From: a virus
Length of the DNA stretch: 42,086 nucleotides
Direction: 5' to 3' (one strand)
Virus record (IMG/VR): IMGVR_UViG_3300027832_000001
Part shown: one piece after another, positions 1 to 40,929 of the stretch
Position numbering within the stretch: position 1 is the first letter of the stretch
Layout: every line of letters starts with the position of its first letter
Made by a program: the position numbers and the translations under genes
The notes under the pieces: model-generated
The model's database searches: none
The model's input: only the letters and a program-made list of their open reading frames with translations
What the model was told of the DNA's origin: nothing

Positions 1-127
1 TGGGTCGCCCTCACCGGCTGGGTCTGCATGATCGCCGCTGGTGGCTTCGGTGTCCGCTACGTGGGAGACGGATCGTGAACCGTGAAGTCGTGACCATCGA
101 CCAGATGGTCAACGGCGACCTGATCGC
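1..127. repeat. Terminal redundancy identical to 41960-42086 (circular-assembly overlap; unique genome length 41959 bp)
   Basis: Read directly: the string tgggtcgccctcaccggctgggtctgc... at base 1 restarts at 41960 and runs unchanged to the last base. Bases 1-78 are therefore the 3' end of CDS 41825..42037. Confidence 0.95.
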
Positions 128-2116: not shown

Positions 2117-2448
2117 GCGCCTTCCGCCATACCCGCCCGATGGTCGGCCACATGAGCGACCGAGGCTTCTGGCATTCTGGCGCTCGGTCGGTCTGCTCGA
2201 AGTGTGACGACAAGAGCCACTCGGCTCACCCCGGCAAGACTGTCTGCCAGTTTTGTCGGCTCGACCTCGGCGACGTGATCGAGAAGAGAGTCCACGCCAC
2301 GGTCACTCACGGCCGAGGCGAACAGCCAACCAGATTCTCTGCTTGCCGCTCGGGCGATTGCAACGAGCGTGTGTTTGTCGGCTCGACCTGCGAAGCCTGC
2401 AACACCTACCAAGATCCGAACAACCAAACCATAGGAGAAACGAAATGA
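2113..2448 (+). CDS. Cys-rich hypothetical protein (several CxxC pairs)
   Basis: ORF track. ATGA overlap. Contains CSKC...CQFC and C..DC...CEAC. Confidence 0.55.
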   Translation: MSAFRHTRPMVGHMSDRGFWHSGARSVCSKCDDKSHSAHPGKTVCQFCRLDLGDVIEKRVHATVTHGRGEQPTRFSACRSGDCNERVFVGSTCEACNTYQDPNNQTIGETK

Positions 2449-2816
2449 GTTACATGACGGTTGCCGAAACGGCCGACCGCCTCGGCGTGTCACGCCAGGC
2501 AGTTCACAAGGCCATCAACAACGGCTCCCTACCGTCCGAGGCCCAGGTGGAGCATGGTCGTGTTGTGCGTTACCTCGTGGCTACTGAAGGAGTCAAGGCG
2601 AGGCTGTCGGCGCAAGCCCGTCCGCCCGGTCATCTGTCGGTGGCCGAGGTCGCCGCCCGGCTCGACGCTGGCACGTCTTCTGTCTCTCGGTGGATCTCGT
2701 CCGGTCTGCTGCCGACGACGAAGGTTGGTGGGTCGTACCTGATCGACCCAGCCGACATTGTTGCTTTCGATTCGCCTGGCCGGACTGGCTCTGACCGGAA
2801 GTCGGCAACGGCGTGA
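2445..2816 (+). CDS. DNA-binding protein with two excisionase/MerR-type helix-turn-helix repeats
   Basis: ATG 2445 (AGGAGA RBS, ATGA overlap) inside ORF 2253..2816. Contains MTVAETADRLGVSRQAVHKAINNG and LSVAEVAARLDAGTSSVSRWISSGLLPTTKVGGSYLI. Confidence 0.6.
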   Translation: MSYMTVAETADRLGVSRQAVHKAINNGSLPSEAQVEHGRVVRYLVATEGVKARLSAQARPPGHLSVAEVAARLDAGTSSVSRWISSGLLPTTKVGGSYLIDPADIVAFDSPGRTGSDRKSATA

Positions 2817-3106
2817 GCAGCCAGACGCGCCTCCGACTCACCGATGAGCAGATGATGCACATCTGTACCGGGGCAATAGAGAACTGGGTGGACGGCATCG
2901 TGTTTACCTTCGAGTGCTTCGGCATCGACCTGACCGCCGTGGACTGTCCCTCGATCAAGCCGTCCGATTATGCGATCCCGTCTATCCAGTGGCGCGCCAT
3001 CGCCGACTCGATGGTCAAGCCAGGGGTGACCGATCATGTGGCCCTCGCCAATCATGCTCTGGACTGGATGAACCTCGGCCCGAGCGCCTACGAGGAGGAC
3101 GCATGA
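2813..3106 (+). CDS. Hypothetical protein (97 aa)
   Basis: ORF track. GTGA overlap with the upstream gene. Confidence 0.55.
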   Translation: MSSQTRLRLTDEQMMHICTGAIENWVDGIVFTFECFGIDLTAVDCPSIKPSDYAIPSIQWRAIADSMVKPGVTDHVALANHALDWMNLGPSAYEEDA

Positions 3107-3130
3107 TGGGGACTCGTCGGTTGGGGATTC

Positions 3131-3187
3131 CAGAATAGTTTCGGGCGAGGGGTTGACGACCCGACTCGGGTCGGATAGAGTGAGGGT
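3131..3187 (+). promoter_or_regulatory. Promoter-operator cassette copy 1
   Basis: -35 TTGACG at 3153-3158. 17-nt spacer containing the perfect palindrome CGACCCGA-C-TCGGGTCG at 3157-3173. -10 TAGAGT at 3176-3181. ATG at 3188, so no room for a leader or RBS. Confidence 0.7.
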
Positions 3188-3580
3188 ATGACTACTACGA
3201 CAACTCCCTCCCGCCTCGCTACCGAGATCGCCGCCAAGTGCGACGAGAATATGAACGGCTACTCCGTCCACCTCGATCGCCTCAAGGCTATGCCCCTCAC
3301 CTCGGTCGAGGAAGCCGCTGAGATCGCCGTCTCGATGGCCGAAGCAAAAGCCTGCGCCACCCTCTACCGCCGTTTCAGCTCGGTCGCCAAGTCGATGATC
3401 GACGCACCGGACCGTGGCATCTCCGCCGCCGAGATCAAGCTGGAAATGATGAGCGTGCTCGTCAGCCTCGCCGTCGAGGGTGCCGACGATCGCTGGAGCG
3501 GTCGGGGCAACGACCTCGCCCGCTCCGCCAACGATGCCCGGCAGAAGCAGATCTCCCGCATCCAGTCGATGATTAACTGA
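3188..3580 (+). CDS. Hypothetical helical protein (130 aa), sole gene of cassette-1 unit
   Basis: ORF track. The ATG lies 6 nt after the -10 element. N-terminus is MTTTTT. Confidence 0.65.
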   Translation: MTTTTTPSRLATEIAAKCDENMNGYSVHLDRLKAMPLTSVEEAAEIAVSMAEAKACATLYRRFSSVAKSMIDAPDRGISAAEIKLEMMSVLVSLAVEGADDRWSGRGNDLARSANDARQKQISRIQSMIN

Positions 3581-5876: not shown

Positions 5877-6026
5877 ATGTCCAGACCCAAGACCAAGGGT
5901 GACTCGATCTCGCTTCGGCTACCGATCGAACACGACCGGAAGCTCCGAGAGTTCGCTGAGGCGAAGAACGAGACACCCGCCGAAGTGATCCTTCGGGTCA
6001 TGGGGCGATCGCTGGACGCCCAGTGA
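5877..6026 (+). CDS. Ribbon-helix-helix (Arc/CopG-like) protein (49 aa, below ORF-track cutoff)
   Basis: Hand translation gives MSRPKTKGDSISLRLPIEHDRKLREFAEAKNETPAEVILRVMGRSLDAQ, a beta strand followed by two helices. Its stop overlaps the terL GTG. Confidence 0.55.
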   Translation: MSRPKTKGDSISLRLPIEHDRKLREFAEAKNETPAEVILRVMGRSLDAQ

Positions 6027-7408
6027 CCGAGTCTCGTGCCGACCGGCTCGCCCGAGCGGGCAAGCTTTCGGAACTCTTCGCTCAGCTCGACGACGACGAG
6101 GCAGCCGAGCTGGCCTACGACTGGTCTTTCTGGCAGCGACCGGAGCAGGCGATCCCGCCCGGCAATTGGGATGTCTGGATGAACCGGGCCGGACGAGGGT
6201 ACGGGAAGACACGCACCGGCTCCGAAACGATACGAGATCTCGCTCACAGCTCCCGTACAGGCTTGCTCGCAGCGGTCGCCCCAACGTCGGGCGACGCACG
6301 GGATGTGCTTGTAGAAGGCGAATCAGGGATACTCGCTGTCTGCCCTCCGTGGGACCGCCCGAAGTACGAGCCGTCGAAGCGGCGACTGACTTGGGAATCG
6401 ACCGGCGCACGACTCACCCTGTTCTCCGGCGAGGAACCCGACCGGCTCCGAGGCCCACAGCACGAGGTCGTATGGGTTGACGAACCAGCCTCGATGGACT
6501 CGGGCGGCGAGGTGATCGACATGGCCCGCCTCGGCCTTCGGCTCGGCAAGCCGAAACTGATTATCACCGGCACCCCGAAACGGGTGGCTTGGATGAAAGC
6601 GATCGAAGCGGAAGCGAGGACCGTCACCACGACCGGCTCAACCTACGAGAACCTCGGCAACCTCGCGCCCGCATTCATTCAGGTTGTCCTCGGCAGATAC
6701 GAGGGCACCCGACTCGGCCAGCAAGAACTCCACGCCGAATACTTGGACCACGTCGATGGCGCTCTTTGGATCATGGCGACGATGGACGCCTCCCGCTTCT
6801 CCGTATGGGACGCCACGCAACCGGACGTGTCGCTGAGGGACGGGATGATGGCGCACGGCATCGAGGCACCGAAGCCCGACGGACGCATGTGGCGGACGAT
6901 CGTCGCCGTTGACCCTCCCGGCGAGACAGCCGAATGCGGCATCGTCGTCGGCACCTCGCCGACCGGAGCGAAAGCGGGCAGGGACCACGCCGTGATTCTC
7001 GCTGACGAGTCGCTCGCCGGTACACCCGAACAATGGGGAGCCGCCGTCGTCGCCGCCGCTCGCCGCTGGGACGCCCAAGCCATCTACGTCGAGAAGAACC
7101 AGGGCGGCGACATGGTCCGCTCAACGATCCACGCCGTTGACCCGTCGGTCGTCGTCAAGAAGATCACCGCCAAAGAGTCGAAGCAGGCACGAGCTGAACC
7201 TGTCTCGGCGCTCTACGCAAAGGGCTGGATACACCACGCCGGTTTCTTACCGAAGCTCGAAGACCAGATGACCGAGTGGGTTCCGAACGAGTCGAAGTCC
7301 CCTGACCGGCTCGACGCTCTCGTCCATTGTGTCCGTACTCTGCTCGAAGAAGTGCAGCCTCGCAGCGTCGGCCGAGTGGCGAGGTCATTCGGCGACCGAA
7401 ACTTCTGA
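6023..7408 (+). CDS. terL: Terminase large subunit
   Basis: ORF track. Walker A GRGYGKT, Walker B VVWVDE, C-terminal nuclease-like IVAVDPPG. Size and position fit. Confidence 0.9.
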   Translation: MTESRADRLARAGKLSELFAQLDDDEAAELAYDWSFWQRPEQAIPPGNWDVWMNRAGRGYGKTRTGSETIRDLAHSSRTGLLAAVAPTSGDARDVLVEGESGILAVCPPWDRPKYEPSKRRLTWESTGARLTLFSGEEPDRLRGPQHEVVWVDEPASMDSGGEVIDMARLGLRLGKPKLIITGTPKRVAWMKAIEAEARTVTTTGSTYENLGNLAPAFIQVVLGRYEGTRLGQQELHAEYLDHVDGALWIMATMDASRFSVWDATQPDVSLRDGMMAHGIEAPKPDGRMWRTIVAVDPPGETAECGIVVGTSPTGAKAGRDHAVILADESLAGTPEQWGAAVVAAARRWDAQAIYVEKNQGGDMVRSTIHAVDPSVVVKKITAKESKQARAEPVSALYAKGWIHHAGFLPKLEDQMTEWVPNESKSPDRLDALVHCVRTLLEEVQPRSVGRVARSFGDRNF

Positions 7409-7826: not shown

Positions 7827-8044
7827 TGATGTGGAGAAGGATCGCGGCTCTCTGCATCGTGGTGCCGTGGCTTCTCGTAAAGCTTGCCCGCAACACATAC
7901 GTCACCAAAAGTGACCTGCTCGCCGAGCGGGAACGAACCGATCATGCTGTCATCGAAGAAGCAGAACTGATTGTCGCTGCCGAGGTCCGACGCCGATCCC
8001 AAGATCAACACCCCTCACAGGAGTACCCTGACAGTCATGGCTGA
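7826..8044 (+). CDS. Small membrane protein (72 aa)
   Basis: ATG 7826 inside ORF 7700..8044. TM segment IAALCIVVPWLLV. Confidence 0.45.
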   Translation: MMWRRIAALCIVVPWLLVKLARNTYVTKSDLLAERERTDHAVIEEAELIVAAEVRRRSQDQHPSQEYPDSHG

Positions 8045-9947
8045 TCGCTCACCCGCACGTTCTACGCCGCACCGGTATTCGCTGGTCGCTGCCGCCGAGG
8101 TAATCGCCTCCGCCGATATCTCCCGCCCGTACACGTCTTCGGGCATGATGCTCGAATGGCAGGAGCGTGCCTGGGGCTACTATGACCGGGTTGGCGAGTT
8201 CCGTTTCGGTGTCGGCTGGTGTTCGAATGCGATGTCGAGAGTGAACCTGACTGCTGCTGCTCCGCCCAGGCAGGTCGGCGACGAGCCGACAGCGATCGAC
8301 GTGGAGAGCGACGAGGTGACGCCATCGCAGCGGCGTGCGATTGAGCTGGTCGAGCAGATCGCGGGCGGAGCTTCCGGCCAGGGGCAACTGTTGGGCGAGT
8401 TCGGTTCGCATCTTTCGATCGCCGGGTTCGGCTGGCTTGTTGCGGAGCCGAGGCTCGGAGATCCGAACTCCGATTCGTATGAGACGTGGCAGGTGCTGCC
8501 GCAGGATGCCCTGAAGTTTGAGGGCACGACCAACCAAAAGATTTTCCTCCGTATCGGAGACGGCAACAAAAGCGACGCCTGGCGACCGGTACACCCGAAC
8601 TCGCTGATCGTCAAAGTGTGGCGTAAGCATCCTCGTAAGCCGTGGCAGCCGGACGCCCCGGTCCGGGCCGTGCTCCCCGTATTGGAGATCATCGAGCTGC
8701 TCACCGATCACATTACAGCGTCGGGCCGCTCACGTCTCGCTGGTGCCGGTCTGCTTGCGATCCCGTCGGAGACAGAGTTTCCGCCACCGCCTCCGGTCGA
8801 GGGTGAGACGACCGTTGCCACCGAGCAGGATCGGTTCGACCATTTCGTCGAAGAGTTGACGAACGCCATGACAACGCCGATCAAGAATCGGCAGTCCGCT
8901 GCTGCTGTCGTGCCTTTGCCGATCGCGATCCCCGGCGAGTTCATCGACAAGATCAAACACATCTCATTCTCGACGCCGTTCGACGCCCAGGTCCGCGAGC
9001 TGATGGAGGATGCGATCAAGCGTCTGGCGCTCGGCCTCGACATGCCGCCCGAGGTGTTGACCGGCATGTCCGGTGTGAATCATTGGACGGCGTGGCAGGT
9101 CGAAGAGACAGCGATCACCCTACACATCGAGCCGAATGCTGAGATCGTCTGCAACGCTCTGACCGAAGCATGGTTGAAGCCTGCTCTGCGTGCCGAGGGG
9201 TTCGATGAGAACGCTGCGATGGTCTGGTATGACACGAGCGACCTGACTTCTCCGCCCGACAAGTCAGGCTCGGCTGTCGAGGTGTACGACCGCATCCAGC
9301 TATCTGCTCAGGCGTTGCGTCGGGAGACTGGATTCACCGAGGATGACAAGCCGAACGAGGACGAGTTCCGCCAACGGGTTCTGCTCGATGCTGCGAAGGG
9401 CGCTCCGGCGCTCGCACCGTCGATGCTGGCGAAAGCTGGCATCCTCGCCGAAGAGATCGCCGACGCAGTGGCCGACATCCAGGCTCCCGCATCAGCCCCT
9501 ATTTCGCCGTCTACGGAGTCGGAAGCCGGATCTGGCCCAGTTAGGTCCGCACCGTCCCGTGACGGCAGGCCGAGCCAGGTTTCTGCGGCGCTCGATTCGG
9601 CGGTCATCATGGCTTGCGATGGCATCGTGGACCGGGCGATGGAGATGGCAGGCAAACGTCTCCTCGGAGCGATCGGCCGCAAGACCGGGCACGGTCCACA
9701 GGGTGTGGATAAGAAGGGCGATGCCCGCATATTGCATCTCCAATATGATCCGACGGTGTACGCCGACCTCGACCAGCTACTCACCGGCTCGTTCGATCGG
9801 GTCGGAGTCGTCGCCGAATACTTGGGTATCGACGAAGACGCTCTGCTCGCAACATTGAACGCATACTGCCGTGGCCTGCTGGCTGCCCAACACGAGCACG
9901 ATCTGATCCGGCTGTCGGCGGCGCTCGGCGCTGACGTAATGGTCTGA
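8037..9947 (+). CDS. Portal protein
   Basis: ATG 8037 (AGGAG upstream) inside ORF 7971..9947. 636 aa, located between the terminase and the MuF-like gene. Confidence 0.8.
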   Translation: MADRSPARSTPHRYSLVAAAEVIASADISRPYTSSGMMLEWQERAWGYYDRVGEFRFGVGWCSNAMSRVNLTAAAPPRQVGDEPTAIDVESDEVTPSQRRAIELVEQIAGGASGQGQLLGEFGSHLSIAGFGWLVAEPRLGDPNSDSYETWQVLPQDALKFEGTTNQKIFLRIGDGNKSDAWRPVHPNSLIVKVWRKHPRKPWQPDAPVRAVLPVLEIIELLTDHITASGRSRLAGAGLLAIPSETEFPPPPPVEGETTVATEQDRFDHFVEELTNAMTTPIKNRQSAAAVVPLPIAIPGEFIDKIKHISFSTPFDAQVRELMEDAIKRLALGLDMPPEVLTGMSGVNHWTAWQVEETAITLHIEPNAEIVCNALTEAWLKPALRAEGFDENAAMVWYDTSDLTSPPDKSGSAVEVYDRIQLSAQALRRETGFTEDDKPNEDEFRQRVLLDAAKGAPALAPSMLAKAGILAEEIADAVADIQAPASAPISPSTESEAGSGPVRSAPSRDGRPSQVSAALDSAVIMACDGIVDRAMEMAGKRLLGAIGRKTGHGPQGVDKKGDARILHLQYDPTVYADLDQLLTGSFDRVGVVAEYLGIDEDALLATLNAYCRGLLAAQHEHDLIRLSAALGADVMV

Positions 9948-9949
9948 CG

Positions 9950-10795
9950 ATGGCGACTCCGCCACCACTCAAAGCTGACGAGAATGGCTTCGTCTCCGAA
10001 GCCGACTTCGAGGAGTGGATCGTTTCTTGGGAGGTCGAGTCGGCCCGCCTGATGGGCGACGCCGCAGCGAAGATCGCCGAGGAGCATCTCAACATGTACG
10101 TCGAGACTTTGGTGGCGGCGGGCGACCCTGCTGTTTTCGATGCGATGACAGCCGAGTGGCAGGTAGCTGTCGATGAGTTCTTGGCGCTCGGTGTGAAGCC
10201 GCTGTATTTGCAAGGTTCGATTGGTGCCCAGTTGGGTGCGCCGTTGATGCCGGTCGATCTGCTGGCGACATGGACCCAGGTCGTGAATGTGAACGCAGCG
10301 AACTATGTGATGACGGCCAGCAACCGGATCGTTGGTGCGTCGTCGTCGATCTGGTCGCAGGTCCAATTTGCTGCCGAGCAGTCGATCTCATCTGGCGTCG
10401 AGATTCCGAAGCTCCGCAAGGAGGTCGAGAACATCACTGGGTATGCGCGTGGCCGGGCACAGGCGATCGCTCGCACCGAGGTGATGGGCGCATACAATGG
10501 TGGCGACATGGATGGCGCTCGGGCGCTCGGCGCTTACGGCCCTGTGGAGAAGTCTTGGTTGGCGACGGGTGGGCCGCGTACTCGTGAGAGCCACGCCGAG
10601 GCTGACGGGCAGACTGTGTTGATGGAGGAGTCGTTCATCGTGGGTGGTGTGGCGATGGATCGCCCGCTCGATCCGTCTGGCCCTGCGGAGGAGGTCGTGA
10701 ATTGTCGGTGCGTGATGCAAATGTTTTTCGTGGGCGACACTCGGCCGGATGGGACGACGATCGAGGCGGCGACCGAAGAGGCTCCACCAGAATAG
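9950..10795 (+). CDS. MuF-like head morphogenesis / minor capsid protein
   Basis: ORF track. ARTEVMGAYNGG...SWLATGGPRTRESHAEADGQ...VNCRCV matches the Phage_Mu_F / SPP1 gp7 domain pattern. Confidence 0.75.
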   Translation: MATPPPLKADENGFVSEADFEEWIVSWEVESARLMGDAAAKIAEEHLNMYVETLVAAGDPAVFDAMTAEWQVAVDEFLALGVKPLYLQGSIGAQLGAPLMPVDLLATWTQVVNVNAANYVMTASNRIVGASSSIWSQVQFAAEQSISSGVEIPKLRKEVENITGYARGRAQAIARTEVMGAYNGGDMDGARALGAYGPVEKSWLATGGPRTRESHAEADGQTVLMEESFIVGGVAMDRPLDPSGPAEEVVNCRCVMQMFFVGDTRPDGTTIEAATEEAPPE

Positions 10796-10845
10796 TTTCG
10801 GGTTGAGGGTTGACGACCCGACTCGGGTCGGATAAGATGATTGAC
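10788..10845 (+). promoter_or_regulatory. Promoter-operator cassette copy 2
   Basis: -35 TTGACG at 10810-10815. Palindrome at 10814-10830. -10 TAAGAT at 10833-10838. ATG at 10846. The conserved AATAG supplies the MuF-gene stop codon (10793-10795). Confidence 0.65.
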
Positions 10846-11103
10846 ATGACCGACACGACAACCTTCCCCATCTCGACCTCCACGACGACCGGCACCGACG
10901 CCGAGACTGGCCGACGGTGGGCCGAGTTCCGAGTCCTCGCAAACGGCAACTACATCGGCCAGGCAATCGAGATCACGGCGGGCGGCTGCTGGGCCTCCTT
11001 CGGTCACGGTGACCGCCCGGCCGGAACCTTCACCACGAAGACCGACGCCAGCCTCAAGCTCGCCGCCGACTACGCCGCCATGATGGCCACCCGGCCCTTC
11101 TGA
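10846..11103 (+). CDS. Hypothetical protein (85 aa), moron gene 1
   Basis: ATG 10846 inside ORF 10810..11103, 7 nt after the -10 element. N-terminus MTDTTT. Confidence 0.6.
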   Translation: MTDTTTFPISTSTTTGTDAETGRRWAEFRVLANGNYIGQAIEITAGGCWASFGHGDRPAGTFTTKTDASLKLAADYAAMMATRPF

Positions 11104-11150
11104 TGCCCCTCGCCTCCCGAACCTCGAACCCGACCAGAAAAGAGAATGCG

Positions 11151-11612
11151 ATGACAACCTCCACGACCCTCCGATCCGAAGCCGCCCGGCATGAGCAGGA
11201 CGCCGCCGACAGCTTCGACCGCTGCGACACCGACGGCTTCGTCAGCCAATGGGCGTCCGGCTGCATGGCAGCCAAGAAGCGCCTCGCCGCTGCCATCGCC
11301 GACCGGGGTGGAGTCGCTGAGTTCCCGGCGCTCTTCGATCTCGACGGCAACCTGGTCGCCGCCAAGCTGATCGACGGCAAATACGGGATGGTCTGGGGCA
11401 TCCTCGCCTCCGACGATCCGGCGAGCGACATCACCGAATGGGTGACGGCATTCCCGGTGCGTGAGTCCACGATGGCGAAGAAGGGCTACGCCGAGGGCAT
11501 GGTCCTCGCACCGGCCTACGCCGACCTCCGAGGTGCCAACGCCTGCAACGTCACCGCCCGCTCCATCCGCACCGACGGCGGATTCTCCCGCAACGTCGAG
11601 ATCGTCGCCTGA
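11151..11612 (+). CDS. Hypothetical protein (153 aa), moron gene 2
   Basis: ATG 11151 inside ORF 11103..11612. N-terminus MTTSTT. No motif recognised. Confidence 0.6.
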   Translation: MTTSTTLRSEAARHEQDAADSFDRCDTDGFVSQWASGCMAAKKRLAAAIADRGGVAEFPALFDLDGNLVAAKLIDGKYGMVWGILASDDPASDITEWVTAFPVRESTMAKKGYAEGMVLAPAYADLRGANACNVTARSIRTDGGFSRNVEIVA

Positions 11613-11630: not shown

Positions 11631-11672
11631 GAGCGCCCCGACCGGAACATGGGTCGGGGCGCTCTTTGCGTT
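11631..11672 (+). terminator. Intrinsic terminator closing the moron
   Basis: Perfect 13-bp stem, GAGCGCCCCGACC (11631-11643) with GGTCGGGGCGCTC (11652-11664). 8-nt loop, then TTTGCGTT. Confidence 0.8.
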
Positions 11673-11742
11673 CCGGGACACCCACCGGGTTCGAGCATGA
11701 CGGTCCACCTCCGATCGGCCCGTATGGGTCTACGCTGTCCGT

Positions 11743-13125
11743 ATGAGGCTCGCACTCGAAGACAACAAGGTCACACTCGCCGAAGATGACGCTCTCCTGG
11801 AGGACTCGCTCGACGACATGGAAGACGCGCTCGACGACGTGGCGGTGGCCGACGACCTCGAACCGGACGACAGCTTCGACGGCCGAACCAAATGGATTCT
11901 GCTCGTCGAGGGCATCGAGACAGGCGACAAACGACTCTTCGAAGAAGGCGCGATCACATGGCGAGATCTCCCGCTCCCGCTCATGGCGACCGACATGACC
12001 GGCAACGGCCACGACGGCGCACAGCTCGTCGGCCGGTTCGTCGAGATCTACCGTGAGGGCAACCAGGTCATCGGCGTGTCCGAGCCGATCGACTCCGACG
12101 ACGACAACGTGCTCCGACTCCAGAGGCTCATCGACAGCGGCGACCTCAAAGGAATCTCTGTGGACCTCGACAACATCGAAGGCTCGATGATCGTCGAAGA
12201 GATGCCCGACCCGACCGAGAACGAAGACGGCACAATCGGCATTGATATGTCGATGCCGAAGATCCGTATCTCCGCCGCCCGCATCATGGGTGCGACCGGC
12301 GTCCCGTTCCCGGCGTTCGCCGAGGCCCACCAGATCCAAGCCAGCCTCATCGCCGGAGCGATGTCGCTCGACACCCTCCAGACCGCAGACGTGGCCCTCA
12401 TCAATGCGCCAGTCCGACCGCCGCTCCACTGGTTCGATGACCCTGGCTTCGTGGGCCCGACGCCGATGGATGTCGAGTCCGACGGATACATCCGAGGCCA
12501 CGTCGCTCTCTGGGCGTCATGCCATCGCGGCTTCGATTCCTGCACCCCTCCGCCTCGCGCCCCATCCGGCAACTACGAGCACTTCCACACCGGCCAGATC
12601 ATCACGGCCGACGGCTCGAAGATCGGCGTCGGCAACATCACCGTCGATTCCGGTCACGCCGACATCAGAGCGAATGCCAACCTCGCCAAAGAGCACTACG
12701 ACAACACCGGCTGGATCGGTGCCGACGTGCGTTGCGGCGAGGACAGCTTCGGTATCTGGATGGCCGGTGCGATCCGCTCCGACATCAGCCCTGAGATGTT
12801 GCGGGCGCTGATGGCAACCGACGTTTCTGGGGACTGGAGGTCGATCAACGGACGCTTACGACTGATCGGGCTGGCCTCGATTCCGGTGCCCGGTTTCGTC
12901 AAGACTCAGGTCGCCTCGGGTGAGCTTCTTGCGATGGTCGCCTCGATCCCGGTGTGCGCCGCCGACCTCGACCCGATCGACCTACGAATAGCAGACAGGA
13001 TCGCCCTCTCAGTAGGCCGTACACGAGAGCAAATCATGGCAGATCGAGATCGTGTCGCATACGGCATCGGACGCCACCCAGCGCAGCAGAGAGCTGCCCT
13101 GGCAAACCGGATTCATGGCAAGTAG
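11743..13125 (+). CDS. Capsid maturation (prohead) protease
   Basis: ORF track. GHDGAQLVGRFVEI...LIDSGDLKGISVDL resembles the HK97-type S78 protease core. Acidic N-terminus. Lies upstream of the capsid gene. Confidence 0.65.
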   Translation: MRLALEDNKVTLAEDDALLEDSLDDMEDALDDVAVADDLEPDDSFDGRTKWILLVEGIETGDKRLFEEGAITWRDLPLPLMATDMTGNGHDGAQLVGRFVEIYREGNQVIGVSEPIDSDDDNVLRLQRLIDSGDLKGISVDLDNIEGSMIVEEMPDPTENEDGTIGIDMSMPKIRISAARIMGATGVPFPAFAEAHQIQASLIAGAMSLDTLQTADVALINAPVRPPLHWFDDPGFVGPTPMDVESDGYIRGHVALWASCHRGFDSCTPPPRAPSGNYEHFHTGQIITADGSKIGVGNITVDSGHADIRANANLAKEHYDNTGWIGADVRCGEDSFGIWMAGAIRSDISPEMLRALMATDVSGDWRSINGRLRLIGLASIPVPGFVKTQVASGELLAMVASIPVCAADLDPIDLRIADRIALSVGRTREQIMADRDRVAYGIGRHPAQQRAALANRIHGK

Positions 13126-18341: not shown

Positions 18342-18452
18342 CCCCTGAGACGGCGCTATATGCCCGTCTAAGCGCTTCAAGCCGGTATTCGCCGCCGTTG
18401 CCCCGGTCGGGATGGTTGGCTTCTCAGATCGCGCCGACTACTGTCGGGGTTC

Positions 18453-18890
18453 ATGGCACTCTCAAGCAAGAACCTCCAAGCACTCAATCGGGCGAAGGAA
18501 AGGATCGCTGAGTCGGCGATCGTCCTCGAACGCACATACTGGGAGTCGGAGTTCACATTCAGGTTTCGGCCGGTGCTCACGATGCCCGCCCTGGAGGTCA
18601 TCTCAAAGATTCAGGCTTCGACCGGCGACGACGTGATGGCGCAGACCGGCAACGTGAAAGATCTGTTGATACTGATGGCGCTCGACGATGAAACGGAGGA
18701 GCTGATCGACATGCTCATCGTCGAAGGCACTTTGGACATCAAGTCGATGATCGCTTTGCAAGCCGATGTGGTTTCTGCTGCCGCAGCGCGCCCTACCGTG
18801 AGGTCGTCGTCATCAGCGGATGGATCGCTCTCCAGTGGTCCAGCTTCGACGGCCTCTGCACAGCCCGAGGAATCGACGCTGCCGCTCTGA
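18453..18890 (+). CDS. Tail assembly chaperone (G-like)
   Basis: ORF track. Immediately upstream of the tape measure. A downstream -1 frame is open with no start codon. Confidence 0.65.
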   Translation: MALSSKNLQALNRAKERIAESAIVLERTYWESEFTFRFRPVLTMPALEVISKIQASTGDDVMAQTGNVKDLLILMALDDETEELIDMLIVEGTLDIKSMIALQADVVSAAAARPTVRSSSSADGSLSSGPASTASAQPEESTLPL

Positions 18891-19111: not shown

Positions 19112-21844
19112 ATGGCTGGTCCTATCGCTGTTGCAACAATCGAGATTGTTCCAGAGCTTGCTACGTTCAATTCTGGAATCAAGGAAGCATTCTCGAAAGC
19201 ACAAAGCCAGGCGGCGAAGGCTGGCGAAGATATTGAGGACTCTTTCGGTGAGGCTGCCCGACAGTCAATCGACGAGTTCCAAAAGTTCAACACCGGCACA
19301 TTCAAGGATGCAACGGTCGGCGCTGATCGGGCTGGCGAGCAGATCGAGGATTCGTTCAAGGAGGCGCAGCGAACATCGAACAAGGCACTCGGAGGCATCG
19401 ATCTCAAGAAGGCTGCTGCTGGCCTCGCAGGCCTATTTGCTGGCGCTCAGCTCGGCTCGTTCTTCAAGGATGCGACGCTCGACGCTCAACGGTTGAACTC
19501 AGCGCTGGCGAACACTGATGTGATTATCACAGCGACGGGCGGCGTGGCCGGTATAACAGCCGACGAGATCCGCAAGTCTGCTCAGGAGTTGTCGCTGCTG
19601 ACCGGCGTCGCCGCCGTAGACATTCAGGAAGCATCGAACGTTCTTCTCACATTCAAGAACATCGGTTCCGATACGTTCGATCGCACTACGGCGGCGGCGC
19701 TCGACATGACCGCTGTGCTCGGCGGCGATGCGAAGGGTGCTGCTGTCCAATTGGGCAAGGCTCTGAACGATCCGACTAAAGGCGTGTCGGCTCTGGCGAA
19801 AGCTGGTGTCACGTTCACCGATCAGCAGAAAGAACAGATCAAGACAATGCAGGAGTCCGGCGATCTCGTCGGTGCTCAGAACATCGTGCTGGCCGAATTG
19901 GAGGGACAGTTCAAAGGTGCTGCGGAGGCGTCGGCAGACTCGACCGCAAAGATCGGCGCGGCGTTCACAGCATTGAAGGAGAACGTCGGGCAGGGTCTGA
20001 TCGGAGCGCTCGACGAGGTGACCCCTGTCCTGCTCGATCTGATTACCGCCATCACTCCCGCCTTGACTTCGCTCGGCGTGCTGCTGGGCGATGCGTTCAA
20101 AGCTCTGCTCCCGGCGATCAGCGAACTCATCAAGGGACTCACACCGCTCTTCGAGATTTTCGGTGCAATGATCCCCGTGGTCGCACCGATCATCCAACTA
20201 ATTGCCGAAGTGCTCGTCGTCGCATTCCAGACGTTGGCCGACGTTCTGGTCCCTGTTCTCGATGCGTTGGCACCGGTCGTCAAGATGATCGCAGGGAAGC
20301 TCGGCGAGGCGCTCACGAAGATCGCTCCGATTCTCGCCGAGGTCGCTGGGATCATCGCCGACGTGTTCGTGAAAGCGATCGAGATAGCAATACCGATTCT
20401 CGATCAACTGTTCCCGATCTTCACTGAGATTGTTGGCATCGTTGGCGGCGCTCTCACACAGATTCTTGGAGTCCTGGCGACAGCATTTCTCGACATATTC
20501 ACGGCGCTCGCCCCGTTGATCCCGATTCTCGCAGGCGTGTTACTGACGGCCATCGAGCTGCTCGCTCCGCTGTTCACGACGGTCGTCGAAGCCATCGTGC
20601 CGCTGATCCCGTTGATCGCTGATGGGTTGGTCAAGGCAGTCGAAGGATTGATGCCGCTGCTTACGGTGCTGCTCGATGCGTTCGCGCAGATCGCACCGCT
20701 GCTGATCGACGCACTCGTTCCGATCTTGCCGATCCTCGTGGATTTGTTTCTGTCTCTGATTGAGGCGCTTCTACCGCTCGTTCCGACGCTTGTCCTATTG
20801 GTCGAATCATTGCTCCCGTTGATGGTCCAAATCATCGAGGCGCTGACACCGCTGCTTGAGGGAGCGGCTGAGATCATCTCCGCCGTTCTGGTCGTCGCCG
20901 TCGAGTTCCTGTCGGACAAGCTGACATGGCTGCTGGAGGAAGTCATTATTCCAGTCGTTGAGTTTCTGGATCAGAACTTCAAACCTGCGCTTGAAACGCT
21001 CGGTGAGAAGGCGGGCGAGGTCGGCGGCTTCTTCGTCACGATGGGAGAGTTCTTCCAGGGTGTCTACGATGACGTGCTGTTGCCGATCAAAGACTTCTTT
21101 GTTGGTGCGTTCAAAATTGCGATTGAAGCTGCCGGTGTTTACTTCGAGGTTCTCGGCACGGTGTTCGACACTGCGATGGGGGTCATCCAAACAGTCTTCG
21201 ACACTGTGCTCATGCCGATCAAAGACTTCTTTGTTGGTGCGTTCAAAATTGCGATTGAAGCTGCCGGTGTTTACTTCGAGGTTCTCGGCACGGTGTTCGA
21301 CACTGCGATGGGGGTCATCCAAACAGTCTTCGACACTGTGCTCATGCCGATATACAATTTCTTCAACGACGTGTTCGGGACGGCGTTCGAGGCTGCCGGT
21401 ACAGCACTGGAGACGCTGGGCGAAGTGTTCAGCACCGTGTGGGGCGGGATCACGACGACGGTTGACACGGCTGTCGGTGCTGTCAAGACGGCCATCAATA
21501 CAATCATCAGCGGATGGAACGCAATCGAGTTCAAGATCCCCGGCTTCAAGATCGGGCCTATCGGATACGACGGCTTTACACTCGGGCTGCCAAACATCCC
21601 GAAGCTCGCGAACGGTGCGATGATTAACTCGCCGACGCTCGCCCTGGTCGGCGAGGCTGGCCCCGAGCTGGTGCTGCCACTCAACCGTCCCCGCCGTGCA
21701 GCCCAGCTTCTCAACGAGTCCGGTATTGGCGGCGGCGGTGCGGTCGTGTCGATCGCCACCGCAAACTTCTACGATGGCACGGACGCCGATCTGGTGGCAC
21801 AGAAAACGATGCTCGCTTTGAGCGCAAGGAGGCTGACAGCATGA
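19112..21844 (+). CDS. Tape measure protein
   Basis: ORF track. 910 aa, helical and hydrophobic repeats. C-terminal GPIGYDGFTLGLPNIPKLANGAMINSPTLALVGEAGPELVLP. Confidence 0.9.
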   Translation: MAGPIAVATIEIVPELATFNSGIKEAFSKAQSQAAKAGEDIEDSFGEAARQSIDEFQKFNTGTFKDATVGADRAGEQIEDSFKEAQRTSNKALGGIDLKKAAAGLAGLFAGAQLGSFFKDATLDAQRLNSALANTDVIITATGGVAGITADEIRKSAQELSLLTGVAAVDIQEASNVLLTFKNIGSDTFDRTTAAALDMTAVLGGDAKGAAVQLGKALNDPTKGVSALAKAGVTFTDQQKEQIKTMQESGDLVGAQNIVLAELEGQFKGAAEASADSTAKIGAAFTALKENVGQGLIGALDEVTPVLLDLITAITPALTSLGVLLGDAFKALLPAISELIKGLTPLFEIFGAMIPVVAPIIQLIAEVLVVAFQTLADVLVPVLDALAPVVKMIAGKLGEALTKIAPILAEVAGIIADVFVKAIEIAIPILDQLFPIFTEIVGIVGGALTQILGVLATAFLDIFTALAPLIPILAGVLLTAIELLAPLFTTVVEAIVPLIPLIADGLVKAVEGLMPLLTVLLDAFAQIAPLLIDALVPILPILVDLFLSLIEALLPLVPTLVLLVESLLPLMVQIIEALTPLLEGAAEIISAVLVVAVEFLSDKLTWLLEEVIIPVVEFLDQNFKPALETLGEKAGEVGGFFVTMGEFFQGVYDDVLLPIKDFFVGAFKIAIEAAGVYFEVLGTVFDTAMGVIQTVFDTVLMPIKDFFVGAFKIAIEAAGVYFEVLGTVFDTAMGVIQTVFDTVLMPIYNFFNDVFGTAFEAAGTALETLGEVFSTVWGGITTTVDTAVGAVKTAINTIISGWNAIEFKIPGFKIGPIGYDGFTLGLPNIPKLANGAMINSPTLALVGEAGPELVLPLNRPRRAAQLLNESGIGGGGAVVSIATANFYDGTDADLVAQKTMLALSARRLTA
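21083..21346 (+). repeat. Perfect 2 x 132-bp tandem duplication inside the tape measure gene
   Basis: 21083-21214 and 21215-21346 are identical base for base (44 aa: PIKDFFVGAFKIAIEAAGVYFEVLGTVFDTAMGVIQTVFDTVLM). Confidence 0.95.
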
Positions 21845-29270: not shown

Positions 29271-29684
29271 ATGAGTATCGCTGACGAACTTCGTACCGCT
29301 GGCCTCGATGTCATCGAGGGTCGCCCGTATGGTCGGATGACCGATGTGGGTGGCGTTGATGTTCTCTCGACAGGGACGGGCCGCTCGCATGAGTGTGCCG
29401 ACGACATCAACAATATCGTCACCCCGGCGAGGGGCACGGTGTATCTCGAACGGTCTGGTCGGGTCTGGCTGCTCGCTGACGGCCCGGTCGGTTCCGATGA
29501 GAATGCGACTGTGTTCTTGGCGCAGTATCGGGATGAGGGTTCGGAGGAGCAGGCCGACGCGCTCGCTGTCGTCCTCGCTGTTCTTGATGCGGCTTACGCC
29601 ACCGTCGCCCCCATTACCGCCTCCGACGCCGTAGACGGCGAAATAGGGGCTGATCCGGTCGATCCCGAAGAAGACTCCGAATGA
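29271..29684 (+). CDS. Acidic hypothetical protein (137 aa)
   Basis: ORF track. Strongly acidic C-terminus. Confidence 0.55.
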   Translation: MSIADELRTAGLDVIEGRPYGRMTDVGGVDVLSTGTGRSHECADDINNIVTPARGTVYLERSGRVWLLADGPVGSDENATVFLAQYRDEGSEEQADALAVVLAVLDAAYATVAPITASDAVDGEIGADPVDPEEDSE

Positions 29685-29798: not shown

Positions 29799-30047
29799 AT
29801 GAGCGAAGCAGTATGGGTGTTCCTCGGCGCAGTTATCTCGACCATCATCAGCTCGTCGATCAGCCTGTACCGTTCTCGGCTGAATGGTGCCAGCAATCAG
29901 ATCGAGGCGCTCACGGCATCGGACAATCTGATCGGCCGACTGGAGACTCGCATCGACAAACTAGAAGAGCGAGTCAAAGCAATGGAAGCGGAGCTTGACA
30001 GATATCACGTTCTGTACGGGCCCCTCCCACCGGCGAAGCTGCATTGA
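29799..30047 (+). CDS. Membrane protein with a coiled-coil tail
   Basis: ATG 29799 inside ORF 29754..30047. TM segment VWVFLGAVISTIISSSISL followed by a heptad-like region. Confidence 0.5.
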   Translation: MSEAVWVFLGAVISTIISSSISLYRSRLNGASNQIEALTASDNLIGRLETRIDKLEERVKAMEAELDRYHVLYGPLPPAKLH

Positions 30048-30568: not shown

Positions 30569-30574
30569 CGCTCA

Positions 30575-30607
30575 CCCTCGCCGCCCATGCGGTACGGGCG
30601 ACGAGGG
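30575..30607. terminator. Bidirectional hairpin at the convergence of rightward and leftward genes
   Basis: CCCTCGCCGCCC (30575-30586) pairs with GGGCGACGAGGG (30596-30607), 11 of 12 pairs. Lies between the + stop at 30568 and the - stop at 30678. Confidence 0.5.
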
Positions 30608-30677
30608 AGGCTGACACCGCGGTAGAAAGGATCGACTCAATGAAGCCGGAAAGAACCGTGGTGGTCGAATGTCAGCC

Positions 30678-30824
30678 TTACGAAATGACCAGCCATAGTA
30701 TGGCAGATCCGGCGACCGCTACCCACAGGGCGACGATTGCGAACGCCCATCGGATGCAGCCGTAGGCGAGGTCGGTTGAGCGTTGATCGGTCGGCTCGCC
30801 CCGGTCGGGTGCAGGCCAGCTCAC
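30678..30824 (-). CDS. Small membrane protein (48 aa, below ORF-track cutoff)
   Basis: Hand translation of the reverse strand gives VSWPAPDRGEPTDQRSTDLAYGCIRWAFAIVALWVAVAGSAILWLVIS. GTGA overlap with the HNH-like gene stop. Confidence 0.4.
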   Translation of the reverse strand: MSWPAPDRGEPTDQRSTDLAYGCIRWAFAIVALWVAVAGSAILWLVIS

Positions 30825-31144: not shown

Positions 31145-31146
31145 GA

Positions 31147-33141: not shown

Positions 33142-33384
33142 ATGACCAACCAGACAAACTCCACCACCCACCAGTTTGCGGCATCGCAGATCGAGGTCGG
33201 CGACGAAATCCTGATCCGAGTTCACTCGACGAACCCGAACGACTTCCAGCGTCGCCGCCACTACCTGAAAGTGCTCGCCACCAACGGCGACGGATACAAG
33301 GTCAAGGTCTTCACCGACCAGGGCGAGATGTCCTTCCGCAACTCCGACATCGTCGAGATCGTCACCCACGGCTGGACCGCATGA
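33142..33384 (+). CDS. Hypothetical protein (80 aa)
   Basis: ATG 33142 inside ORF 33106..33384, 7 nt after the -10 element. N-terminus MTNQTNSTT. Confidence 0.6.
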   Translation: MTNQTNSTTHQFAASQIEVGDEILIRVHSTNPNDFQRRRHYLKVLATNGDGYKVKVFTDQGEMSFRNSDIVEIVTHGWTA

Positions 33385-36728: not shown

Positions 36729-37097
36729 GTGATTCGCTCTGGTCCGATCAAACGTAAGAAGTCAGCGGATCGGACCAGAGCAGGGTCGCCCGCACAGGGT
36801 GCTCAGAGGCCATCTAAGCAACGATCCCGCCCGAGGAGGGCCGGTGTCGCCCCTGATACCGCTGAGGCTGTGAAGGAGCGAGACCAAGAATGCCAGGCGT
36901 GGCCGCTCGGCTTCGCTCTCGATCGCCGATGTTCGGGCCGAGGCCACATTCACCATCGTGTGCTGAGATCGCAAGGAGGCGAGCACACCGCCGAGAATCT
37001 GCTACTGCTATGCGAGGCGCATCACGACCTCGCTCATAACTCACGACGGGCCGAGGCTGAGGCAGCGGGCGTCATCATCAGAAGGGGTATCAAATGA
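36729..37097 (+). CDS. HNH endonuclease
   Basis: ORF track. HIHHRVLRSQGGEHTAENLLLLCEAHHDLAH is a canonical H-N-H core. Confidence 0.8.
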   Translation: MIRSGPIKRKKSADRTRAGSPAQGAQRPSKQRSRPRRAGVAPDTAEAVKERDQECQAWPLGFALDRRCSGRGHIHHRVLRSQGGEHTAENLLLLCEAHHDLAHNSRRAEAEAAGVIIRRGIK

Positions 37098-37528
37098 ACA
37101 ACATGAGTTTGTTCGACGGAGACGGCGACGACGAAGGCGACAAGAAGGACGACCGGCTGGCGACGCTAGTGGCCAGAGTGTTCTTCTTGATGAGCGATCG
37201 TCACTGGCGTTCGCTCGGCGACATCGGCGAGAAGGCGGGAGGGTCGGAAGCGTCCGTGTCGGCTCGGCTCCGAGATCTACGGAAGCCACGTTTCGGTGGG
37301 CACACCGTCGAGCGTCGCCTGGTTGGCGGCGGGCTGTACGCCTACCGGCTCCAGCCGAGCGATCTTGGTCTGCTCGACGGCCGGGCCGAGCGGTCGCCGA
37401 AAGCCGACGCTCGACGCCGGGTGACCGAATACCTCGACAAGCGGGAAGGCCAGCTCCAGGCTGATCTGATCGACTGGGCTTGGTCCGGCGAAACACTGTT
37501 GATGTCCGATCTTCGGGTGCTGCTGTGA
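37094..37528 (+). CDS. Hypothetical protein, possibly winged-helix DNA-binding
   Basis: ORF track. ATGA overlap. HWRSLGDIGEKAGGSEASVSARLRDLRK. Confidence 0.4.
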   Translation: MNNMSLFDGDGDDEGDKKDDRLATLVARVFFLMSDRHWRSLGDIGEKAGGSEASVSARLRDLRKPRFGGHTVERRLVGGGLYAYRLQPSDLGLLDGRAERSPKADARRRVTEYLDKREGQLQADLIDWAWSGETLLMSDLRVLL

Positions 37529-37920
37529 ACGATCACATCCGGCCGGTCATGTCGCAGGCCCAAATCGAACATCAGATCATGGACACCGCCGATGCGTTGG
37601 AGCTGCTCGTCGAGCAGTACGCCGAGATCGCCGAGGCGGCTGGACTGTCCACGGCGGAGCATCTGAAACAGCAGGCGCTGATGACCTTGGCCGTCATCGA
37701 GCATCCGCCGCGCAACGAAAACGGACTGGCAATAAAGCAGGATGCGAAGTCTCGTGACGCACGGATCGAGCTGGCATCAAACGACGAGCGGAAGGCGGCT
37801 GCGATTGCTGGCGCTCGTCGAGAGTTCCAGCGAGAAGCGATGTCGATGCAACGGTCACGGCTCGACGCTCTCCGCACCCTCGCCGCCAACGTGCGATACC
37901 AGTTGAGTAACAACGGATGA
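37525..37920 (+). CDS. Hypothetical helical protein
   Basis: GTG 37525 (GTGA overlap) inside ORF 37480..37920. ATG 37549 is an alternative start. Confidence 0.5.
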   Translation: MNDHIRPVMSQAQIEHQIMDTADALELLVEQYAEIAEAAGLSTAEHLKQQALMTLAVIEHPPRNENGLAIKQDAKSRDARIELASNDERKAAAIAGARREFQREAMSMQRSRLDALRTLAANVRYQLSNNG

Positions 37921-38183
37921 GCACGACCGTAGTCGGGTATGGTGTTGGCATGACCGAGAACGAATCCAAGAAGCTGTCCGCTCTCCAGCTCTCCGTGTGC
38001 CGGGGCAACCTGGCGATGCTCGAACGTAATGCGTTTCTCAAAACGCTGTACGAGAAGGGTGCCACGCAGCCCGAGCTGGCGATCACACTCAACGTAGTGT
38101 CACGCACAGTGGGCGACAAGGAGATCACGCCGGACGCCGTGTACCGGGCGATCAAACGCATCAACGATCGGAGCGGATCATGA
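37917..38183 (+). CDS. Small helix-turn-helix protein
   Basis: ORF track. ATGA overlap. GATQPELAITLNVVSRTVGD. Confidence 0.45.
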   Translation: MSTTVVGYGVGMTENESKKLSALQLSVCRGNLAMLERNAFLKTLYEKGATQPELAITLNVVSRTVGDKEITPDAVYRAIKRINDRSGS

Positions 38184-40683: not shown

Positions 40684-40929
40684 ATGACAACGACGACAAC
40701 CTCAACCGATACCGCCCGAGTGACCGAGTTCGCCTTGAACGGCTTCGCCGTTTGCGTCGGAAAGAACGTGGTCACCCGTAACTTCCGAACCCGAGCCGAA
40801 GCCGAAGTGGCTCTGGCCGAGTGGAACGTGACCGCCGCCGACACGACCGACGGCGAGTGGACCTTCGAGGGTTCCGACCTCGAAGCCGAAGCGCTCGCCG
40901 CCGATCTCCGCCGGGCGGCACAGTCATGA
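40684..40929 (+). CDS. Hypothetical protein (81 aa)
   Basis: ORF track. The ATG lies 6 nt after the -10 element. N-terminus MTTTTT. Confidence 0.65.
   Translation: MTTTTTSTDTARVTEFALNGFAVCVGKNVVTRNFRTRAEAEVALAEWNVTAADTTDGEWTFEGSDLEAEALAADLRRAAQS

Follow-up and report, generated by a model that had tools for sequence, protein, structure and literature searches.

A repeated promoter cassette with a dyad in its spacer and a start codon at the predicted +1 in an uncultured siphovirus and its relatives

Results

The viral record IMGVR_UViG_3300027832_000001 (42,086 nucleotides; the whole stretch is referred to here as the window) carries four near-identical copies of a short cassette. In each copy, a near-consensus promoter, a palindrome within the promoter spacer, and an ATG start codon are fused into one unit. 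We suggest that the cassettes are SigA-type leaderless promoters that are jointly controlled by a dimeric DNA-binding protein, and we give this reading a probability of roughly 60%. Judged from sequence comparison with related phages, the cassettes look like a lineage-wide module for gene control and gene shuffling, with each phage having its own version of the site.

Four copies of one cassette in the window

A repeat search and reading of the sites identified four direct repeats of 78-84 nt, all on the plus strand, which we call cassettes A to D. Cassette A is at 33083-33166 (-35 at 33106-33111, palindrome at 33110-33126, -10 TAGAGT at 33129-33134, ATG at 33142). Cassette B is at 40626-40709 (-35 at 40649-40654, palindrome at 40653-40669, -10 TAGAGT at 40672-40677, ATG at 40684). 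Cassette C is at 3130-3213 (-35 at 3153-3158, palindrome at 3157-3173, -10 TAGAGT at 3176-3181, ATG at 3188), and cassette D is at 10787-10870 (-35 at 10810-10815, palindrome at 10814-10830, -10 TAAGAT at 10833-10838, ATG at 10846). All four have the layout TTGACG-17 nt-TAGAGT/TAAGAT-6/7 nt-ATG, and the 17-nt spacer is ACCCGACTCGGGTCGGA. The discriminator is GAGGGT (6 nt) in cassettes C and B, and GATTGAC (7 nt) in cassettes D and A.

An earlier inspection of the letters alone (the sequence-only reading) had proposed four near-identical cassettes with a near-consensus promoter and 17-nt spacing, and our scans agree with it. Each of the four scored 9/12 in a promoter consensus scan with a 17-nt spacer, and each has the elements of a sigma-70/SigA-type promoter (-35 close to TTGACA, -10 TANNNT, spacing of 17 ± 1 nt). 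The genome has five matches to the pattern TTGNNN-16..18-TANNNT-5..8-ATG followed by an open reading frame (ORF) of 40 codons or more, compared to a mean of 0.19 and a maximum of 2 in simulations. The 17-bp perfect palindrome that had been reported within the promoter, CGACCCGACTCGGGTCG, is exact in 4/4 copies, and its four exact occurrences in the genome are the four cassettes. With up to 3 mismatches there were 13 strand-hits versus 0.71 expected, and 0 of 100 shuffled sequences gave as many.

The cassettes also reach into the genes on either side. A conserved TAG had been proposed to supply the stop codon of the upstream gene at two loci, and it does: the TAG of cassette D (10793-10795) ends the MuF-like gene (9950-10795), and that of cassette B (40632-40634) ends the gene at 39786-40634. 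Downstream of the ATG, ATGACNNNNACGACAAC is present in cassettes C, D, and B, as had been noted for three of the four copies; cassette A has ATGACCAACCAGACAAAC instead.

Separately, the TAG of cassette C (3136-3138) closes a 10-codon mini-ORF that starts with the ATG at 3106 (the feature spans 3092-3138). The mini-ORF has a strong Shine-Dalgarno (SD) sequence, GAGGAGGA, and overlaps the stop codon of the gene at 2813-3106.

We found two further sites that the sequence-only reading, correct on the four cassettes, had missed. One is a leftward promoter at 33071-33043 (minus strand), TAGCCA-GACCGACTCGGGTCGGG-TAGACT. It has the same putative operator in a 17-nt spacer, with 2 mismatches in one arm, and is back-to-back with cassette A and ~50 nt upstream of the Gam-like start at 32985. 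The other is a degenerate copy at 36636-36664 (plus strand) that has the putative operator with 2 mismatches and TAGAGT, and lacks a -35. It is upstream of an HNH gene (36729-37097) and a winged-helix gene. One relative, C3 (below), has a full cassette-like promoter where the window has this degenerate site.

The same design in related lineages

We recovered relatives using portal, tail, g52, and ParB-like proteins as queries, which gave a series of graded relatedness (the query and its percentage are given in parentheses). C1 (portal, 87%) has 4 copies of TTGTCA-ACTCGACCCrAGTCGAG-TAAGGT-GTTGAC-ATG. C2 (portal, 97%) has 3 copies of TTGCAT-CCCCGA-N6-TCGGGA-TAAGAT-N6-ATG and 3 further operator sites. 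C3 (portal, 62%) has 12 copies, on both strands and with a weaker dyad. C4 (ParB-like, 92%) has 4 copies of TTGTCA-ACACGAC-N4-GTCGAG(T)-TAGAGT-ATG; L090 (ParB-like, 62%) has 4 copies of TTGCTA-AC(T/C)CGAC-CCGA-GTCGAC-TAGACT-ATG; and L003 (portal, 62%) has 3-4 copies of TTGCAA-TCCCGAC-N4-GTCGGGG-TAGGTT-ATG. L004 (portal, 60%) has 6 copies of TTGACA-variable spacer-TAtAGT-TGAAGTT-ATG, without a dyad. Altogether, of the 8 lineages examined, 7 had 3-12 cassettes, with a clear dyad in 6 and a weak one in the seventh, and 1 had promoters and no dyad.

The sequence-only reading had recommended looking for the palindrome in related phages. The exact cassette was in none of them; those other than L004 have their own dyads at the same position. 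The window cassette sequence was not found in the relatives' genomes even when up to 7 mismatches were allowed, and the exact cassette, TTGACGACCCGACTCGGGTCG, had no match in viral contigs. Matches to TTGACGACCCGACTCGGGTCG in metagenome and genome contigs were rejected as cassettes; they are in unrelated coding sequence without tblastx similarity.

The window, C1, and C4 share synteny of cassette positions A to D. Three of the four positions are occupied by a cassette in C2, whose early junction has only the leftward operator-bearing promoter. Copies in the same genome are 77-83% identical (over 64 nt), whereas orthologous copies in different genomes are 36-61% identical, even though the flanking genes are 82-97% identical. 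Because copies within a genome are more alike than orthologous copies despite similar flanks, the cassettes of one genome evolve together.

A dyad at a fixed position in the promoter spacer

We used the -10 hexamer to anchor an alignment of 34 cassettes, drawn from seven lineages. CGA at -14 to -12 and TCG at -5 to -3 (relative to the -10) were each present in 22-28 of the 34 copies. The core of the dyad across the clade is CGA-N6-TCG, with a fixed axis ~8.5 nt upstream of the -10, or about -21 from the start. In the window this core is extended to CGACCCGA-C-TCGGGTCG. The window spacer, AC-CCGAC-TCGG-GTCGG-A, also contains the shared 5-4-5 palindrome CCGAC-TCGG-GTCGG, which is overlapped by the 8-1-8 palindrome. 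As judged from the alignment, the dyad that is functionally conserved is the 5-4-5 core and not the 8-1-8 palindrome.

Each lineage has its own outer bases in the dyad, and when these change they do so in every copy of the genome at once. Within C2 and within C4, the arms (5-6 nt) are invariant around 4-6 central bases that vary among the copies. The spacers of the window and C1 are identical at 12/17 positions in register, yet they are symmetric in different ways. In the window, C1, and C2, leftward promoters have the dyad of their own lineage in a 17-nt spacer.

The palindrome is not imposed by the promoter alone, because L004 keeps the hexamers and has variable spacers. The spacer dyads have the conserved half-sites, the dyad symmetry, and the overlap with the core promoter expected of an operator for a dimer. 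Based on the conserved half-sites, the free centre, the fixed register on both strands, and the lineage-specific outer bases, we infer that the dyad is the site of a dimeric DNA-binding protein. The sequence-only reading had proposed a repressor-controlled regulon. The position-fixed dyad and the lineage-specific arms favor the operator part of that proposal; the binder may be a repressor.

Start codons at the predicted +1 and an A/C-rich coding start

In mycobacteria, leaderless genes have a -10 where leadered genes carry an SD (PMC4633059). Following that work, we called a gene leaderless if an ATG or GTG was at the predicted +1 and a -10 was present instead of an upstream SD. The cassette genes have an ATG at the predicted +1 and a -10 in place of the SD. 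The distance from the -10 to the ATG was 6-7 nt in 39/40 curated cassettes from 8 lineages; one copy in L090 had 8 nt. An SD-like motif was present at only 1/35 cassette genes, compared to 68/227 other genes. GAGG does occur inside the 6-nt discriminator of cassettes C and B, but it ends just 2 nt before the ATG. These results are consistent with the leaderless start without a ribosome-binding site that had been proposed from the letters, and the cassette mRNAs would be leaderless, with the transcription start site at the A of the ATG.

The four genes that directly follow the cassettes appear to be real coding sequences. They are 33142..33384 (80 aa) behind cassette A, 40684..40929 (81 aa) behind cassette B, 3188..3580 (130 aa, with an N-terminal extension, MTTTTTPS) behind cassette C, and 10846..11103 (85 aa) behind cassette D, all on the plus strand. 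Their G+C content at third codon positions is 0.82-0.84 and their codon scores are high. Orthologues were found for 3188-3580 and 33142-33384, and the first genes of cassettes B and D are without a homologue in the relatives. Their ATG starts agree with public gene calls for identical contigs.

We found that the coding sequence just after the ATG is unusual in composition. A+C at +4 to +27 was 79% in cassette genes compared to 58% in others (p about 2e-15), and G in the first 24 nt after the ATG was 12% compared to 25%. This T/N/S-coding stretch gives N-termini such as MTTTTT, MTNQTNS, MSNKTQ, and MNNRATTTT on otherwise unrelated proteins. The first ~25 nt were unpaired in 4/4 predicted mRNAs. 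The orthologue of 3188-3580 in L003 is cassette-driven and has an N-terminal extension. The orthologue in C2 is translationally coupled and not cassette-driven, and it lacks the MTTTTTPS extension. Because only the cassette-driven orthologues carry it, the extension belongs to the cassette and not to the protein.

Two other starts in the window resemble leaderless starts. The fifth match to the promoter-ATG pattern, at 18416-18455 (TTGGCT-17-TACTGT-8 nt-ATG), precedes the gene at 18453-18890 in the tail-gene region; it is without a dyad and is kept in C2. The start of the protease gene, at 11731-11745, reads TACGCT-6 nt-ATG, without a -35, and follows a terminator. It looks like a -10-only leaderless start of the late operon, perhaps activator-dependent, and could also be due to chance.

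A model for cassette function

We suggest that each cassette is a self-contained expression module. From 5' to 3', the module would consist of the stop codon of the upstream gene, a T-rich and then G-rich upstream element, a near-consensus housekeeping promoter with a 17-nt spacer, and a +1 at the A of the ATG, 6-7 nt past the -10, giving a leaderless mRNA. About eight A/C-rich, G-poor codons would then keep the 5' end unstructured. A dimeric protein bound to the spacer operator near -21 would exclude RNA polymerase. One such protein could switch five units, with the same site in the four rightward promoters and in the leftward promoter of the Gam/ERF/SSB genes. No lysogeny genes were seen. 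The cassettes would therefore most likely serve to shut off early and middle genes by feedback during lytic growth, rather than to provide lysogenic immunity. Promoter activity, the transcription start sites, protein binding, and the sign of regulation are in this model what the sequence patterns lead us to infer.

Cassettes and gene exchange

The cassettes may also be points at which genes are exchanged; the evidence is circumstantial. In C2, the locus of cassette C contains a gene that is 94% identical to the first gene behind cassette A (33142). The first gene at locus C of C1 (C1_13086) is 68% identical to the first gene at locus D of C2 (C2_31224). In addition, nucleotide homology between the window, C1, and C2 ends at or inside cassettes (at about 10781-10792, 3213-3216, and 33162). 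Small first genes could have been swapped between cassette loci, and between phages, at the cassettes. The identical 60-80-bp cassettes would act as portable homology, and the ERF/SSB/Gam operon is a possible engine of recombination between them. The differing loci of the first genes and the breakpoints lend circumstantial support to the gene-moving module that the sequence-only reading had raised as a possibility.

These observations could be taken further. The cassettes might be primarily portable recombination junctions, made up of a stop, a promoter, a start, and N-terminal codons, with regulation by a protein secondary or absent. Short-homology recombination, for example by ERF/SSB/Gam, would shuttle small genes among four fixed loci, and from one co-infecting phage to another, and the copies would be homogenised by gene conversion. 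We consider this possible, although with clearly less confidence than joint control by a dimeric protein; the two overlap and are not exclusive. Beyond the shared first genes and the breakpoints, it would fit with the homogenisation of the whole 60-nt unit in each genome and not of the dyad alone, with the N-terminal extension that moves with the cassette, and with the presence of the ERF/SSB/Gam operon in the genome. However, joints in phage mosaics are generally at gene boundaries, and some coincidence with cassettes is expected. Gene conversion alone also leaves unexplained why dyad symmetry with a variable centre is kept in the same register across lineages, and L004 keeps cassettes without a conserved spacer.

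A more speculative notion, which we think doubtful, is that the cassette is a portable "expression adaptor" comprising a stop, a UP-like element, a promoter, an operator, a +1 ATG, and an A/C-rich N-terminal tag, and resembling an integron attC site without an integrase. If so, a small gene recombined behind a cassette (by ERF/SSB/Gam) would gain transcription, translation that needs no ribosome-binding site, and control by the common regulator all at once. All operators in a genome would be rewritten together when the specificity of the regulator changes. The A/C bias after the ATG would then reflect a requirement of leaderless expression in the host that had gone unrecognised.

Readings of the cassettes as miniature inverted-repeat transposable elements (MITEs), integrons, or sites of site-specific recombination were rejected. 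Reading of the sequence and Pfam and NCBIfam scans gave no terminal inverted repeats, target duplications, or recombinase genes.

Candidate regulators and other readings of the dyad

If the cassettes are controlled by a dimeric protein, the window encodes three candidates, all on the plus strand. The first (37094..37528) is a winged-helix protein with a model pLDDT (predicted local distance difference test) of 86, and its best fold matches, with weak E-values, are the dimeric repressors ArsR/SmtB and MarR. The degenerate operator at 36636-36664 is upstream of the HNH-winged-helix gene pair. In place of this protein (type A), C1 has an unrelated winged-helix protein (type B). The type B proteins of C1 and C4 are 89% identical, and the operators of these phages are nearly the same. 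Scans with the C1 and C2 winged-helix proteins returned only their own contigs. The second candidate (2445..2816) is a tandem excisionase/MerR-type HTH_17 protein. In the window, C1, C3, and C4, at most one other gene separates its gene from cassette C, and in L090 its gene is between two cassettes. The third (37917..38183) is a small helix-turn-helix (HTH) protein that is present in every lineage, and in L090 its gene directly follows a cassette. A homologue search with it returned 3 proteins only.

The HTH candidates of the sequence-only reading fared unevenly. The product of 5877-6026 has no detectable DNA-binding domain, and 37917-38183 travels with ParB/TET in phages that have no cassettes.

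Several observations weigh against control by a dedicated phage protein, or against parts of the model. L090 has a C1-like operator and an unrelated protein at the winged-helix position. The family of 37094-37528 is large and is found in phages without such repeats; contigs with 50-61% homologues are from different phages that lack them. The C2 genome, which is nearly complete, lacks the HTH_17 protein. The small HTH protein is part of a conserved g52-g53-ParB-TET module that is also present in distant GC-rich phages without cassettes. The core of the dyad, shared across lineages with 60-92% ParB identity, might just as well be recognized by a host factor. Lastly, mycobacterial reporters showed no sequence preference downstream of a leaderless ATG (PMC4633059), and so the A/C-rich stretch is not explained by known rules.

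One alternative is that the dyad is read by a host transcription factor, or by an activator or architectural protein, which would tie early transcription of the phage to a host signal. The CGA-N6-TCG core and its register are kept where the candidate phage regulators are swapped or missing, as this would predict, and MerR-type factors bind with the centre of their site near -21. The actinobacterial LexA box, TCGAAC-N4-GTTCGA, resembles the core of the dyad but does not match it. The spacers are optimal (17-18 nt) and the hexamers near consensus, which argues that activation is unneeded. The outer bases are lineage-specific and change genome-wide, which points to a co-evolving phage partner, as for the Cluster A repressor and its stoperators (PMC6550527). 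On balance we think a host factor or activator unlikely.

It is very unlikely that the palindrome acts as an RNA hairpin in termination, processing, or stability, or is a functionless remnant of a recent duplication. The palindrome can form a 7-bp stem with a 3-nt loop, and since the cassettes are within long co-directional gene arrays, read-through RNA would include it. However, it has no U-tract, folding of the cassette RNA gave z-scores of -0.96 to +0.45 versus shuffles, and there was no Rfam match at the gathering threshold in the whole window. C2 and C4 keep just 5-6-nt arms around variable 4-6-nt centres, and the position is fixed relative to the -35 and -10 on both strands. A recent duplication cannot account for independent dyads in seven lineages. 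The palindrome was also rejected as an intrinsic terminator: no T-run follows it, it was missing from the terminator scan, and the folding z-scores were not significant.

That the palindromes are parS-like sites for the ParB-like protein (38180-38809), comparable to the four dispersed SopB sites of phage N15, is scarcely credible: there is a ParB_N-like gene in the genome and four to six dispersed palindromes in promoters, but the protein has a ParB N-terminal domain only (E 0.0014, below the Pfam threshold) with no HTH and no ParA found, its gene is fused in a conserved TET/JBP DNA-modification module that is also in phages without cassettes, and the protein sequence is 87-92% identical in phages whose dyads differ.

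Genome context and other features

The window is the complete circular genome of an uncultured siphovirus. Bases 1-127 are identical to 41960-42086, and this exact 127-bp terminal repeat indicates a genome of 41,959 bp that was assembled as a circle. At least four other public samples contain the same phage (≥99.95% identity), with variation that was uninformative. A megablast search against GenBank phages gave no match. The structural proteins match those of actinobacteriophages only, at <40% amino-acid identity. No integrase, CI-type repressor, or ParA was found among the genes of the window.

The genome includes genes for a terminase (6023-7408), a portal (7971-9947), the MuF-like protein (9950-10795), a capsid protease (11743-13125), a tape measure protein (19112-21844), and an SLT lysin (30044-30568). 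A leftward operon on the minus strand (31147-32985) contains Gam-like (32410-32985), ERF (31805-32413), an 86-aa gene, and SSB (31147-31575). The rightward early region (plus strand, from 33142) contains a replication initiator, HNH, winged-helix, ParB_N-like, and TET/JBP-like dioxygenase genes. Cassette A is at the divergent early junction and heads the early and replication genes to about 40.6 kb. Cassette B heads a block of small genes (40.6 kb). Cassette C (3.1 kb) is upstream of the gene run into terminase, portal, and MuF. Cassette D heads a two-gene unit (genes 10846-11612) between the MuF-like and protease genes, and this unit is closed by a strong intrinsic terminator on the plus strand (11631-11664), a 13-bp stem (11 G-C pairs) and then TTTGCGTT.

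The small HTH gene is in a module (37480-40634) of g52, the small HTH protein, the ParB_N-like protein, the TET/JBP-like dioxygenase, and a 282-aa protein. Distant GC-rich phages also have the first four of these genes, accompanied by ADDT and P-loop kinase genes, a combination suggestive of DNA hypermodification. At this position C2 has QueD/QueE/GTP-cyclohydrolase-like genes instead. PHROGs labels the product of 38809-39789 a queuine tRNA-ribosyltransferase; this conflicts with a Pfam TET_JBP match above threshold, and we treated the protein as TET/JBP-like.

We noted several other repeats. In C1 and C3, a second repeated motif, ACCAACCAGAAAG(A/C)AGAAACCAATGAC, is located just before leadered start codons (L001 3996-5270 and 14009-14625; L008 314-340, 1230-1256, and 10386-10412). 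Its only good match in the window is in the leader of the Gam-like gene (32983-32999, minus strand). A 40-nt inverted repeat (9487-9526 and 29619-29658) has arms that are 93% complementary, ~20 kb apart, and both kept in C2. One arm is inside the portal gene and the other at the 3' end of a 137-aa gene (29271-29684). RNAs from the two arms would be complementary on one strand, and the repeat could serve in long-range RNA pairing or as a site of DNA inversion or recombination. The tape-measure gene contains a 132-nt tandem duplication (21021-21284, 80% identity). A 187-nt dispersed repeat in the small-gene block (463-649 and 1912-2098, 92% identity) points to paralogous small genes. The ~580 nt at 30569-31146, from the lysis genes to the end of the leftward SSB gene, have no confident gene call and are 73% identical to C1. 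They contain short minus-strand ORFs with Cys-rich stretches and gave no Rfam match.

Discussion

If the cassettes are leaderless promoters under the joint control of a dimeric protein, an uncultured lineage of actinophages runs nearly all of its non-late transcription from one compact repeated module. The ~60-nt unit would then be a strong, probably switchable expression part for high-G+C Gram-positive hosts. The natural operator variants (CCGAC/GTCGG, TCGAC/GTCGA, ACGAC/GTCGA, and CCGA-N6-TCGG) could be used to study regulator specificity and how dispersed sites shift in step. The cassettes would also be a concrete case of repeated regulatory DNA that marks the joints of phage mosaicism, and an A/C-rich N-terminal stretch that goes with leaderless starts would sharpen the known rules for leaderless translation. 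In the literature, we found no description of a repeated unit that fuses a stop codon, a promoter, a spacer operator, a +1 ATG, and an N-terminal codon tag. Several known systems share some of these features.

The operators of lambdoid phages and 434, like the phiC31 repeats described below, would be analogous in function to the cassette sites. As at PR and PL, a dyad overlaps the core of a strong early promoter, there is a divergent early junction, and operator specificity varies between similar phages. In contrast to the lambdoid phages, there is a single spacer dyad here rather than a tripartite operator, the mRNAs would be leaderless, and no CI/Cro pair or integrase was seen. The identical unit is also at four to five distant places, including within the structural-gene array.

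Streptomyces phage phiC31 has conserved inverted repeats (CIRs), a 17-bp sequence with many intergenic copies that is associated with repeated early promoters and is bound by the c repressor. Phage phiC31 is temperate and has a known repressor, and, unlike the cassettes, its early promoters are not known to be sigma-70-like.

The stoperators of Cluster A phages (L5, Bxb1) are similar to the sites described here in that there are many copies of a phage-specific site, the consensus shifts with lineage, and one is in an early promoter, Pleft (PMC6550527). Each stoperator is an asymmetric 13-14-bp site that binds a monomer and points in the direction of transcription; a genome has 20-30 of them, most located outside promoters, and they act by blocking elongation (PMC6550527). 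In contrast, the sites in the window are symmetric and number 5-6, with four or five of them in promoter spacers, and they do not fit the description of stoperators.

Cluster O phages (PMC4351075) have SigA-like predicted promoters with a +1 at the start codon, and a multicopy 17-bp inverted repeat. In these phages, 34 palindromes (TGTTCGG-N3-CCGAACA) and 8-9 promoters are separate features (PMC4351075), whereas in the window the palindrome is inside the promoter spacer, and the promoter, palindrome, and start form one repeated unit. We therefore rejected Cluster O as an example of the same design, as the palindromes are listed apart from the promoters (PMC4351075).

Lytic Microbacterium phages have an 18-bp inverted repeat (Cluster EG) or an 18-bp motif (Cluster EC), in 8-12 copies in short intergenic gaps, with no function reported (PMC7302621). 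In Cluster EC, one copy of the motif precedes an inserted gene that separates the MuF-like gene from the protease gene (PMC7302621), and this gap is the place of cassette D. The EC motif differs in that it is asymmetric and located 21-30 bp ahead of start codons. As for the Cluster EG inverted repeat, it is ruled out as the same element by the sequence of Hyperion (EG), which reads GATCAACC-NN-GGTTGATC and then an SD, without a flanking -35 and -10.

Finally, cassette D, together with its two small genes and the terminator at 11631-11664 between the MuF-like and protease genes, has the makeup of a moron. It differs from a moron in that the promoter is the phage's own repeated, early-type promoter. 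Cassettes A to C are without a terminator and do not have the makeup of morons.

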